This document shows, one piece after another, positions 3,001-6,000 of a stretch of 64,000 bases of DNA. Position 1 is the first letter of the stretch. Each line of letters begins with the position of its first letter. Position numbers: made by a program. Source of the DNA: Escherichia coli (GTDB taxonomy: Bacteria > Pseudomonadota > Gammaproteobacteria > Enterobacterales > Enterobacteriaceae); NCBI RefSeq assembly GCF_022846255.1, contig NZ_AP025682.1. One strand, 5' to 3'.

Positions 3001-6000
3001 CAGAATCGCGCCCCATGGATTGCCGCTTAAGTTTCCACCGCTATTGAGCATGATGATTCCGGCAAGCCCAATGGCGATACCCACCCATTCCAGTTTGCGC
3101 GTTTTAATGCCAAACAGGCGGCTGAAGCACAGGGTAAAAAGGGGCACGGTTGCAACCACTACGGCGGCGATGCCGGAAGGAACATTTTGATGTTCGGCAA
3201 CCGTCACCATGCCATTACCGACAGCCAGCAATAACAGGCCAATCAGCGCGGCATTGAGCAGCGGACGTGGCGGGGGAAGTTTGTGTCCGCGCAGTAGCAA
3301 AAATGCCAGCAATAAAATACCGGCTGCCAGGAATCGAACGCCCGCCATCATTAACGGAGGCCAGCTTTCCACGCCAATCCGAATGACAAAATAGGTTGAG
3401 CCCCAAATGATATACAACGCAAACAGCGCGCCAAAAAGCGGTAACAACTGGCGGAAACGCATAATCCCTCACGGTGGAAATAAAAAGGTGGTTCATAGTA
3501 AACGTGAAAATCATTCTGCTGGCGAGAGATATAATTGCACTTGATTGTTAAAAAAATGTTGACCTGTGAAGCAAGTATCAGAGCTGCCGTTTTTGCTTCA
3601 TACTTACACCCTTCAACAATAAAAATGAGAGGGAATGCTTTTGGCCGGGAGTAGTTTACTGACGTTGCTCGATGATATCGCCACACTGCTGGACGATATC
3701 TCCGTGATGGGCAAACTGGCGGCGAAGAAAACCGCCGGTGTATTAGGGGATGATTTATCGCTCAATGCGCAACAAGTTTCAGGCGTGCGGGCCAACCGGG
3801 AACTTCCCGTGGTCTGGGGCGTGGCGAAAGGATCGCTGATCAATAAAGTGATTCTGGTGCCGCTGGCGCTGATCATCAGTGCGTTTATCCCGTGGGCGAT
3901 TACGCCACTGTTGATGATTGGCGGCGCGTTTCTCTGCTTTGAAGGGGTAGAGAAAGTGCTGCATATGCTGGAGGCGCGTAAACATAAAGAAGATCCGGCG
4001 CAGAGTCAGCAGCGTCTGGAGAAGCTGGCGGCGCAGGATCCGCTGAAGTTTGAAAAAGACAAAATAAAAGGGGCGATTCGTACCGATTTTATATTGTCTG
4101 CGGAAATCGTCGCCATCACGCTGGGGATTGTGGCAGAAGCGCCGTTGCTTAATCAGGTGCTGGTGCTTTCAGGCATCGCGCTGGTAGTGACCGTGGGCGT
4201 CTACGGTCTGGTAGGGGTTATCGTTAAGATTGATGACCTGGGGTATTGGCTGGCGGAAAAATCCAGCGCGCTGATGCAGGCATTAGGTAAAGGGTTATTG
4301 ATCATTGCGCCCTGGTTGATGAAAGCGTTATCGATTGTCGGCACGCTGGCGATGTTCCTCGTCGGCGGCGGGATTGTGGTACATGGTATTGCGCCGTTGC
4401 ATCACGCCATTGAACATTTCGCCGGGCAGCAAAGTGCAGTGGTGGCGATGATATTACCGACTGTTTTAAATCTGATTCTTGGATTTATCATCGGCGGCAT
4501 CGTGGTGCTGGGAGTGAAAGCCGTAGCGAAAATGCGCGGTCAGGCACATTAATACTCGCACAGGCTATTATGCAAAATTCGCCATCTTCAACTAAGGTGA
4601 ACAAGTTTCACTCGAAAAAAGGAGGCGAGTATGAGCTTTATGGTTAGTGAGGAAGTTACGGTTAAAGAGGGCGGCCCGCGGATGATTGTCACTGGATACT
4701 CCAGCGGTATGGTTGAGTGTCGTTGGTATGACGGGTACGGGGTCAAGCGGGAAGCTTTTCATGAAACCGAGCTTGTTCCGGGGGAGGGGAGTCGTTCTGC
4801 GGAAGAAGTTTGAAAGGGTATCATTAACACCAGGCCGGATCACATCCGGCCTGGTGTGCCAATGCCTGCAATGAATGATAGTCGCGTCTTATCATGCCAC
4901 CATTATAAAATTATCGCTGTTTTGCGGTACGTTATCGCCGGGTTATGCCAGAATCATAAAAAAGCAGGTTGGGAGTCGTCAGGGTGCAGCACGAGACAAA
5001 AATGGAAAACCAGAGCTGGTTGAAAAAACTCGCACGCCGCCTGGGGCCTGGTCATATCGTTAATCTCTGCTTTATCGTGGTATTGCTTTTTTCCACCTTG
5101 CTGACCTGGCGTGAAGTGGTAGTGCTGGAAGATGCCTATATCTCCAGCCAGCGTAATCATCTGGAAAACGTAGCCAACGCGCTCGATAAGCATTTGCAGT
5201 ATAACGTCGACAAACTGATCTTTTTGCGTAATGGCATGCGCGAAGCTCTCGTAGCGCCACTGGATTTCACCTCTCTGCGTGATGCCGTAACCGAGTTCGA
5301 ACAGCATCGCGACGAGCACGCCTGGCAAATCGAACTCAACCGACGACGCACCCTGCCAGTCAATGGCGTGTCGGATGCATTAGTCAGCGAGGGGAATCTC
5401 CTGTCTCGCGAAAATGAAAGCCTCGACAATGAAATTACCGCTGCACTGGAAGTTGGTTACTTGCTGCGACTGGCACACAACTCCTCGTCGATGGTAGAAC
5501 AGGCGATGTATGTCTCGCGTGCCGGATTTTACGTTTCGACGCAGCCGACCTTGTTTACGCGCAATGTACCAACGCGTTATTACGGCTATGTCACCCAACC
5601 CTGGTTTATCGGCCATTCACAACGAGAAAATCGTCACCGCGCGGTACGCTGGTTCACTTCGCAACCGGAACACGCCAGCAATACTGAACCGCAGGTTACC
5701 GTCAGTGTTCCGGTAGACAGTAATAACTACTGGTATGGCGTGCTGGGGATGAGTATTCCCGTGCGTACTATGCAGCAATTTTTAAGAAACGCCATCGATA
5801 AAAACCTCGATGGTGAGTATCAGCTCTATGACAGTAAGCTGAGATTTTTGACCTCTTCCAATCCTGACCATCCAACAGGAAATATTTTTGATCCTCGTGA
5901 ACTGGCCTTGCTGGCGCAGGCAATGGAACATGACACACGGGGCGGCATTCGTATGAGCAGTCGCTATGTTAGCTGGGAACGTCTGGACCATTTCGACGGT

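Follow-up and report, generated by a model that had tools for sequence, protein, structure and literature searches.

Repetitive extragenic palindromic (REP) sequences, for which the consensus GCCGGATGCGGCGTGAACGCCTTATCCGGCCTACGA has been published, are known to stabilize the mRNA that lies upstream of them (PMC12306157). Two of their features, the GTAG head and the mismatch bulge of the stem, are required for binding by the protein TnpA-REP, and GTAG is additionally needed for cleavage (PMC3479197). A second line of work concerns the transcripts that have no U-tract terminator. These terminate diffusely downstream and are then trimmed by polynucleotide phosphorylase (PNPase) and RNase II back to a stem-loop, which is often a REP; Dar and Sorek also proposed, in general terms, that terminators can be switched for stem-loops of this kind (PMC6061677).

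Here, we describe a perfect palindrome in the spacer between yodC and the diguanylate cyclase gene dgcQ of Escherichia coli, at positions 4827 to 4857 of a 64,000-nucleotide (nt) stretch of contig NZ_AP025682.1 (assembly GCF_022846255.1), which we refer to as the window. An initial annotation, made from the sequence alone, left several roles open for it; the option of an RNA 3'-end or stability element stood up, that of a classical terminator was not supported, that of a binding site for dgcQ is unlikely, and an origin from a truncated REP had been missed. We propose that the palindrome is probably a REP-derived protective stem-loop that fixes the 3' end of the yodC mRNA. This kind of element is already known and ordinary. 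What is new is the assignment of this palindrome to it, by which a conspicuous unannotated feature joins a known class, that of the degenerate REP acting as a 3'-end stem-loop.

REP ancestry of the yodC palindrome

The two arms of the palindrome, ACACCAGGCCGGAT (4827 to 4840) and ATCCGGCCTGGTGT (4844 to 4857), are each 14 nt long and 100% complementary, and they enclose a CAC loop (4841 to 4843). Direct reading thus bears out the perfect 14-bp stem with a 3-nt loop described initially, as well as its placement: the first stem base is the 14th nucleotide past the yodC stop codon (TGA, 4811 to 4813), leaving a spacer of 13 nt. The palindrome is the longest perfect hairpin of the window and is far beyond chance. 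When the window was shuffled 200 times with its dinucleotides preserved, perfect stems (loops of 3 to 8 nt) reached 12 bp at most; calculated analytically, 0.0014 stems of at least 14 bp are expected per window. As RNA of either strand, positions 4827 to 4857 fold with −26.8 kcal/mol (z score of −7.5 against dinucleotide shuffles), and within a context of 67 to 71 nt the hairpin still forms (z = −5.6 and −4.7). No further copy of the palindrome occurs within the window at up to three mismatches, and a permissive Rfam scan of positions 4000 to 5600 returned chance-level matches only, all far under the gathering scores.

Comparison across genomes revealed the origin of this structure. The locus was searched for in 5,426 complete E. 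coli genomes and found in 5,364, and yodC loci from 80 species genomes were used for the species comparison. Some of the E. coli matches aligned in two pieces around extra DNA. PM4 and D6, for instance, carry ACACCCGACCGGATGTGGCGCTCACGTCGCATCCGGTCGGGTGT at the hairpin site and, about 25 nt further on, TGCCTGATGCGACGCTATCGCGTCTTATCATGCCTAC; these are two inverted REPs, which together constitute a bacterial interspersed mosaic element (BIME). In PM4, D6, and other Escherichia lineages, the hairpin site reads GGCCGGAT(AA/GT)GGCGTTCACGCCGCATCCGGC, followed by a linker and then by the inverted second REP, and the two-REP arrangement is present in all six of the other Escherichia lineages sampled (E. 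albertii, E. whittamii, two further Escherichia species, and two divergent "E. coli" lineages). The first REP (REP1) of SCPM-O-B-8794, GCAGGCCGGATAAGGCGTTCACGCCGCATCCGGC, is the reverse complement of the REP consensus except that it has GCAG for GTAG, and it also matches a canonical REP found elsewhere in the window (31270 to 31304).

In a multiple alignment, the window palindrome corresponds to a full REP minus 13 central nucleotides, plus one substitution. The REP foot, GGCCGGAT/ATCCGGCC, is kept. Outside it, six further pairs (ACACCA/TGGTGT) form a lineage-specific extension of the stem, which is common to the short form and to the lineage of MOD1-EC7003 (L006) and also occurs in the PM4-type long form with two base changes per arm. 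Downstream of the hairpin, the 5' half of the second REP (REP2) is gone, owing to a 54-nt deletion relative to PM4-type alleles. Judged from these alignments, the palindrome is a truncated y-type REP (REP1) in a decayed BIME. The features of the spacer are as follows.

4814 to 4826, plus strand: spacer from the stop codon to the foot of the stem, read from the sequence
4827 to 4857, plus strand: perfect hairpin, assigned as a truncated y-type REP from its fold, its alignment to REPs, and pair counts
4833 to 4840 (GGCCGGAT) and 4844 to 4851 (ATCCGGCC), plus strand: REP-homologous core, from alignment with full-length REPs at the locus and a bona fide REP
4858 to 4861, plus strand: putative mature 3' end of the yodC mRNA (about 4861), transferred from K-12 position 2028140
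4858 to 4880, plus strand: what remains of the linker that joined REP1 to REP2 in the BIME, from alignment with long-form alleles
4883 to 4901, plus strand: 3' half of the inverted REP2 (CGCGTCTTATCATGCCACC), from alignment

The window has just one further GCCGGAT...ATCCGGC element, the canonical y-type REP at positions 31270 to 31304, which has a GTAG head (GTAGGCCGGATAAGGCGTTTACGCCGCATCCGGCA). The short-form stem also contains two Dcm sites, CCAGG and CCTGG (4830 to 4834 and 4850 to 4854), which long-form alleles do not have; the first is absent in K-12 (TCAGG). Dcm trapped on DNA by 5-azacytidine is reported to stimulate template-switch mutation (PMC6357072), and a tie between the Dcm sites and the palindrome becoming perfect is a matter of speculation.

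The 3' end of the yodC mRNA

Evidence for a role in RNA comes first from a mapped transcript end. In a reanalysis of the term-seq data of Dar and Sorek (strain BW25113 in exponential phase in LB, three replicates, MG1655 coordinates), PMC10687069 reports a peak at positions 2028138 to 2028146 of the minus strand, with a dominant position of 2028140, a signal of 0.94, and the class "Primary" for yodC; the adjusted P values over the three replicates are 0, 0, and 4e-9. The K-12 palindrome occupies MG1655 positions 2028144 to 2028174, and the mapped terminus lies 4 nt past the stem. The K-12 yodC RNA therefore ends in ...CCUGGUGU-GCUA, equivalent to window position 4861 or thereabouts. A transcript 3' end near position 4857 had been set beforehand as a test, which the K-12 end passes. 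Hence, in literature data from K-12 rather than the window strain, a steady-state 3' end lies just past a stable stem-loop that has no U-tract, and this end, together with REP descent, supports the stability or 3'-end element that was among the options of the initial annotation.

The sequence beyond the stem points away from a classical terminator. As noted at the outset, there is no strong U-tract: no T-run follows the stem on either strand, and a terminator scan (0 sites) and a separate hairpin-plus-T-run scan were both empty. The hairpin is GC rich, as intrinsic terminators require, but the U-rich tract of about 7 to 8 nt that should directly follow the stem is missing; the first 8 nt past the stem, GCCAAUGC, contain one U only, and the tail reads GCCAATGC. 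Intrinsic release typically occurs 7 to 9 nt past the stem. An RNA that lacks a U-tract and ends a mere 4 nt past the stem is unlikely to have been released at the hairpin without the help of a factor, and the idea of a classical terminator is not supported.

Variation among alleles provides a further indication that the stem itself has been maintained. The comparison comprises 11 distinct alleles, a small set of related sequences, in which 93.4% of cells are paired and 6 pairs have changed on both sides; the covariation score of this set is 0.166, compared with 0.092 in shuffles, none of 500 of which reached it, and slid partners scored at most 0.066. Outer-stem variants that remain fully complementary include CCAGG/CCTGG, CCAGA/TCTGG, and CCCGA/TCGGG, and the pair 4830-4854 runs through a series of C-G (window), U.G (K-12), and U-A (23CRST010). 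Cells with G.U on the sense strand outnumber those with A.C by 6 to 2.

We propose the following course of events. In Escherichia, the y-type REP1 of a two-REP BIME sits at the place where other enterobacteria have the yodC terminator, and a 13-nt deletion in the center of the REP plus one substitution converted its basal stem, with a 6-bp outward extension, into the perfect 14-bp hairpin. On transcription, the 3' untranslated region of yodC folds into a very stable stem-loop. RNA polymerase would pass it, since there is no U-tract to stop it there, and the transcript would end further downstream, either through Rho or by read-through toward dgcQ and subsequent cleavage. PNPase and RNase II would then trim the RNA back to the foot of the hairpin, leaving a protected 3' end about 4 nt past the stem.

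Both the distal site of true yodC termination and the factor behind it are inferred. A bicyclomycin-sensitive (i.e., Rho-dependent) region is reported at MG1655 position 2027287 of the minus strand, inside dgcQ, with a score of 2.67 and a significance of 9e-5 (PMC7815308). This corresponds to window position 5714 or so, on the same strand and about 850 nt downstream of the hairpin, and it is compatible with distal termination of yodC without being specific for it.

Several points weigh against this proposal. Of the data sets consulted, one alone lists the yodC 3' end; neither the curated 3'-end tables of PMC7815308 nor the RNAtag-seq sheet (MG1655) of PMC10687069 include it, perhaps simply because growing cells express little yodC. 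Downstream of the hairpin, the sequence is only mildly C rich (C/G ratio of 1.36 for its initial 63 nt and of 0.84 for all 126 nt of the spacer), and no clear Rho utilization (rut) site is visible in the yodC-dgcQ spacer. Common alleles weaken the outer pairs (U.G in K-12 and G.G at pair 2 in O157), so that not all 14 bp are strictly needed; some 12 bp seem to suffice. Quasipalindrome template switching can produce symmetry and paired changes in the absence of selection (PMC7202029, PMC5941160). Finally, it is by analogy with other transcripts that we infer exonuclease trimming and stabilization of the yodC mRNA.

Allelic variation and terminator turnover at the locus

Two alleles segregate in E. 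coli. Among the 5,362 complete genomes in which the locus was classified, 4,148 (~77%) carry the short form and 1,214 (~23%) the long form, as counted with a 75-nt query centered on the hairpin (word size of 11), where at least 90% identity denotes the short form and a band of 60 to 80%, into which the long form falls because of its 13-nt insert, denotes the long form. At least 80% of the query was covered in 5,360 of the 5,362 genomes, and an independent query specific for the long form retrieved 1,215 genomes.

The remainder of the spacer varies too. A 42-nt unit made up of the REP2 3' half and a spacer (CGCGTCTTATCATGCCTACGTTATAAAACTATCGATGTCTGT; window positions ~4880 to 4915) has a copy number of one in strain 3985, two in PM4 and D6, and three in UTAK-12. 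Two complete BIMEs each are found in E69 and E. whittamii (L010 and L012), and RX24 (L094) has a 9-nt deletion in the linker. From its sequence, the yodC-dgcQ spacer is thus behaving as a small variable-number repeat locus.

Such flux, with its long and short forms, one to three copies of the 42-nt unit, doubled BIMEs, and linker deletions, is what would be expected if the hairpin were a neutral fossil, a decaying REP without a selected role that owes its perfection and its paired base changes to template-switch correction during replication and whose RNA end is a by-product that any stable hairpin would inevitably give. The GTAG head and bulge that TnpA-REP uses have been lost, and every one of the clustered 3'-flank changes (GGCTGTTGTG to GGCCTGGTGTG) improves pairing with the 5' flank, a signature of template switching. 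A fossil would not, however, readily explain why the hairpin is kept throughout the Escherichia lineages sampled and in all 5,360 E. coli genomes whose match is full length, why a terminator hairpin has persisted there in other genera, or why wobble pairs favor the transcribed strand. We therefore consider neutrality unlikely, though it is the strongest of the competing explanations.

Outside Escherichia, 61 of the 74 loci have an intrinsic terminator (hairpin plus T-run) that starts within 25 nt of the yodC stop codon. It takes the form AAAACGCCCGG-loop-CCGGGCGTTTT in Salmonella arizonae/diarizonae, Citrobacter, Kosakonia, Enterobacter, Phytobacter, and Trabulsiella. Within Escherichia, TGTTTT directly follows REP1 in two lineages (L007 and L009), and TGTTGTG or AGTTGTG is found there in E69 and E. 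whittamii; in E. coli proper, the same place is taken by CTGGTGTG, which pairs perfectly with the 5' flank. These states suggest an order, read off without a rooted tree, from a U-tract terminator to a REP with a residual U-tract, then to an extended-stem REP lacking the U-tract, and lastly to the truncated perfect hairpin. A REP-derived hairpin in the terminator's place explains why E. coli yodC has no recognizable terminator, and the locus offers a compact, well-sampled case of terminator turnover.

A possible relic of the replaced terminator lies just before the REP core. The sequence TTAACACC (window positions 4820 to 4831) is identical to the loop and the beginning of the 3' arm in the S. 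arizonae (L017) terminator, CCCGGTTAACACCGGG, at a similar offset from the stop codon (10 nt in E. coli and 12 nt in S. arizonae). It may be such a relic, or the match may be due to chance.

Enterobacter and Lelliottia (L034-L043, L052-L057, L077, and others) show a different neighborhood, with the dgcQ Shine-Dalgarno sequence and GTG start about 10 to 40 nt past the yodC terminator (an example of the junction is ...GCGTTTTTATGTGACATTCAGGGAGTGTGTGTGCAG). As this leaves little room for a promoter after the terminator, dgcQ may depend on read-through of the yodC terminator in these genera.

That proximity raises the question of whether the E. coli hairpin acts as an attenuator, halting or pausing RNA polymerase, either factor-free or as an aid to Rho entry, and so limiting yodC read-through into dgcQ. 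It does stand where other genera have their intrinsic terminator, in Enterobacter and its relatives the dgcQ ribosome-binding site comes directly after that terminator, TGTTTT still follows REP1 in L007 and L009, and BIME-associated Rho-dependent attenuation has been published (Espeli et al. 2001). Yet the single U in GCCAAUGC and an RNA end at +4, nearer to the stem than the 7 to 9 nt of intrinsic release, do not fit an attenuator, an annotation based on EcoCyc has yodC as its own transcription unit (class "Primary"), and a conserved promoter-like motif precedes dgcQ downstream of the hairpin. Attenuation accordingly seems improbable to us, and the protective stem-loop is retained as the preferred explanation.

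Flanking genes and comparison with known systems

The neighbors of the hairpin and the motif just mentioned are as follows.

4631 to 4813, plus strand: yodC coding sequence, 60 amino acids, DUF2158, sigma-S regulon (from the open reading frame list, RefSeq of an identical sequence, and Pfam)
4943 to 4954, plus strand: TTATGCCAGAAT, candidate extended −10 promoter (TGcCAGAAT), from a motif search over yodC loci
4984 to 6678, plus strand: dgcQ coding sequence with the GTG start as in RefSeq, 564 amino acids (from the open reading frame list and RefSeq)

The inclusion of yodC in the sigma-S regulon is documented for E. coli in a chromatin immunoprecipitation sequencing table (PMC4447067) and for Salmonella (PMC5437024). 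Since yodC depends on sigma-S, the hairpin is expected to matter mostly in stationary phase or under stress.

Small open reading frames over the hairpin (4592 to 4843 on the minus strand; 4856 to 5023 and 4875 to 5063 on the plus strand) were considered and rejected, as they are unannotated in the RefSeq records inspected and the region is repeat derived. The copy of RefSeq record NC_000913.3 that was inspected has no repeat feature at the site (2025000 to 2029500). The same copy, over positions 5000 to 6000, is also without the REP-containing feature that we take to be near yaaX-yaaA in MG1655, and so the lack of an annotated REP at yodC carries no weight. Individual elements are not listed in the RepRanger supplements consulted, and the TERMITe supplements have no entry for yodC. 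Under the operational rules of RepRanger (an intergenic palindrome with no T-rich tail), the window element would qualify, and its distance class would be that of elements at most 15 nt from the stop codon.

This short distance has another potential consequence. Translation is reported to drop where a REP follows the stop codon at a distance of fewer than 16 nt (work of Liang, Rudd, and Deutscher from 2015, summarized in PMC12306157), and the yodC hairpin, with its spacing of 13 nt, could therefore down-regulate YodC, with the terminating ribosome running into the hairpin and stalling, followed by mRNA cleavage and tagging by transfer-messenger RNA. The stem extension of E. coli has in fact moved the foot from about 19 nt, as in the E. 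whittamii-type REP, to 13 nt. Against this, the evidence is one of position, and the 13-nt distance is set by the very outer pairs that K-12 and O157 have weakened. We regard such an effect as doubtful, but it may add to a role at the 3' end.

On the other side of the spacer, 126 nt separate the hairpin from the dgcQ start codon. The motif TTATGCCAG(A/G)AT occurs some 30 to 40 nt upstream of the dgcQ GTG in 15 of the 80 loci (Escherichia, several Citrobacter, and Salmonella arizonae/diarizonae) and looks like an extended −10 promoter of dgcQ's own. A sigma-70 scan of the plus strand from the hairpin to dgcQ found no promoter at the tool's threshold, and we found no published promoter in the literature on yedQ (dgcQ). 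Our literature searches also found nothing that pairs yodC with dgcQ or yedQ and, for yodC together with terminator, nothing on E. coli yodC.

The dyad symmetry of the palindrome and its position upstream of dgcQ would fit a protein-binding site, and a DNA-level function could take the form of an operator for a dgcQ regulator or of a gyrase, IHF, or Pol I site like those of some BIMEs; binding of all three proteins to REP or BIME DNA is reported. The conserved dgcQ-proximal sequence, however, begins about 85 nt downstream of the hairpin and lies outside it. Between common E. coli alleles, each arm differs at two positions, and the arms of the long form lie 13 bp further apart than those of the short form. 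Genera that keep dgcQ do so without the element and have a terminator in its stead. Gyrase and IHF would need two REPs and specific linkers, which are broken in the window allele. A perfect, GC-rich stem of 14 bp is also atypical for operators. A role at the level of DNA is thus very improbable, and of the explanations considered here it is the one we credit least.

If the two alleles were to change yodC or dgcQ expression, and only then, the locus would take on a larger significance. One can imagine the spacer as a strain-variable valve: with the terminator replaced by a REP/BIME that was then remodeled (loss of the U-tract, extension of the stem, deletion of the center, duplication of units), the long and short alleles would differ in how much of the sigma-S-driven transcription of yodC they let through into dgcQ and would also set YodC output via the collision of ribosomes with the hairpin, giving heritable differences in biofilms. 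If true, these alleles would act through dgcQ, a cellulose-regulating diguanylate cyclase, and E. coli lineages would differ in biofilm behavior. This scenario is a long shot, one that we put on a par with attenuation.

Other elements of the window were noted in passing. Rfam matches at the gathering threshold comprise the small RNA DsrA (7688 to 7774, plus strand), whose terminator is a 10-bp perfect hairpin at 7748 to 7772, the small RNA C0465 (59664 to 59741, minus strand), and three tRNA genes (41153 to 41451, plus strand). Further hairpins are a 12-bp perfect stem with a 1-nt loop at 23236 to 23260 (TTCCCGCTGTGG-G-CCACAGCGGGAA), an 11-bp stem at 45387 to 45412 that its A6 and T6 flanks make look like a terminator for both directions, and another of 11 bp at 8378 to 8403 that closes on a GAAA loop.

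How, then, does the yodC palindrome compare with described systems? It shares with the yodC intrinsic terminators of other genera its place after the stop codon and a GC-rich hairpin, whereas those terminators have A- and U-tracts, of which it has neither, and their stem sequence is unrelated. Like template-switched perfect inverted repeats (PMC5941160, PMC7202029), it is perfect, conserved among strains, and marked by clustered changes that raise symmetry; unlike them, it has two further features, a wobble bias on the transcribed strand and the mapped 3' end of the RNA, that speak for a role at the RNA level. With stop-proximal REPs that lower translation it has in common REP derivation and a foot 13 nt from the stop codon, but where those REPs have stalling and tagging, the yodC case is one of position, and its distance depends on outer pairs that do not belong to the REP. 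The protective 3' stem-loops of Dar and Sorek are likewise stable, without a U-rich tail, and followed closely by a 3' end; the Rho dependence and exonuclease trimming that they display would apply to yodC by analogy.

The closest relative is the REP itself. Like REPs, the window element is extragenic, sits just 3' of a gene, folds as a stem-loop, and lies within the mapped yodC transcript; its basal stem is identical to the REP foot, and a remnant of an inverted second REP follows downstream. Descent is documented by the full-length REPs that occupy the same site in the 1,214 long-form E. coli genomes, roughly 23% of the total, and in the six other Escherichia lineages. Nevertheless, it measures 31 nt where REPs have 35 to 40, only the 8+8-nt foot matches the consensus and 13 central nucleotides are absent, the head is CCAG in place of GTAG, the stem is perfect because the region of the mismatch bulge has been deleted, and the stem has a 6-bp extension that lies outside the REP. 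The truncated form is found at a median of one place per genome, in contrast to the many copies of REPs. With both the head and the bulge gone, TnpA-REP probably no longer recognizes the element. A BIME is intact in the long-form alleles, while the window allele retains the 3' half of REP2 alone. Given its descent and its conserved foot on the one hand and these departures from a REP on the other, the yodC palindrome is best named a truncated REP remnant inside a decayed BIME.

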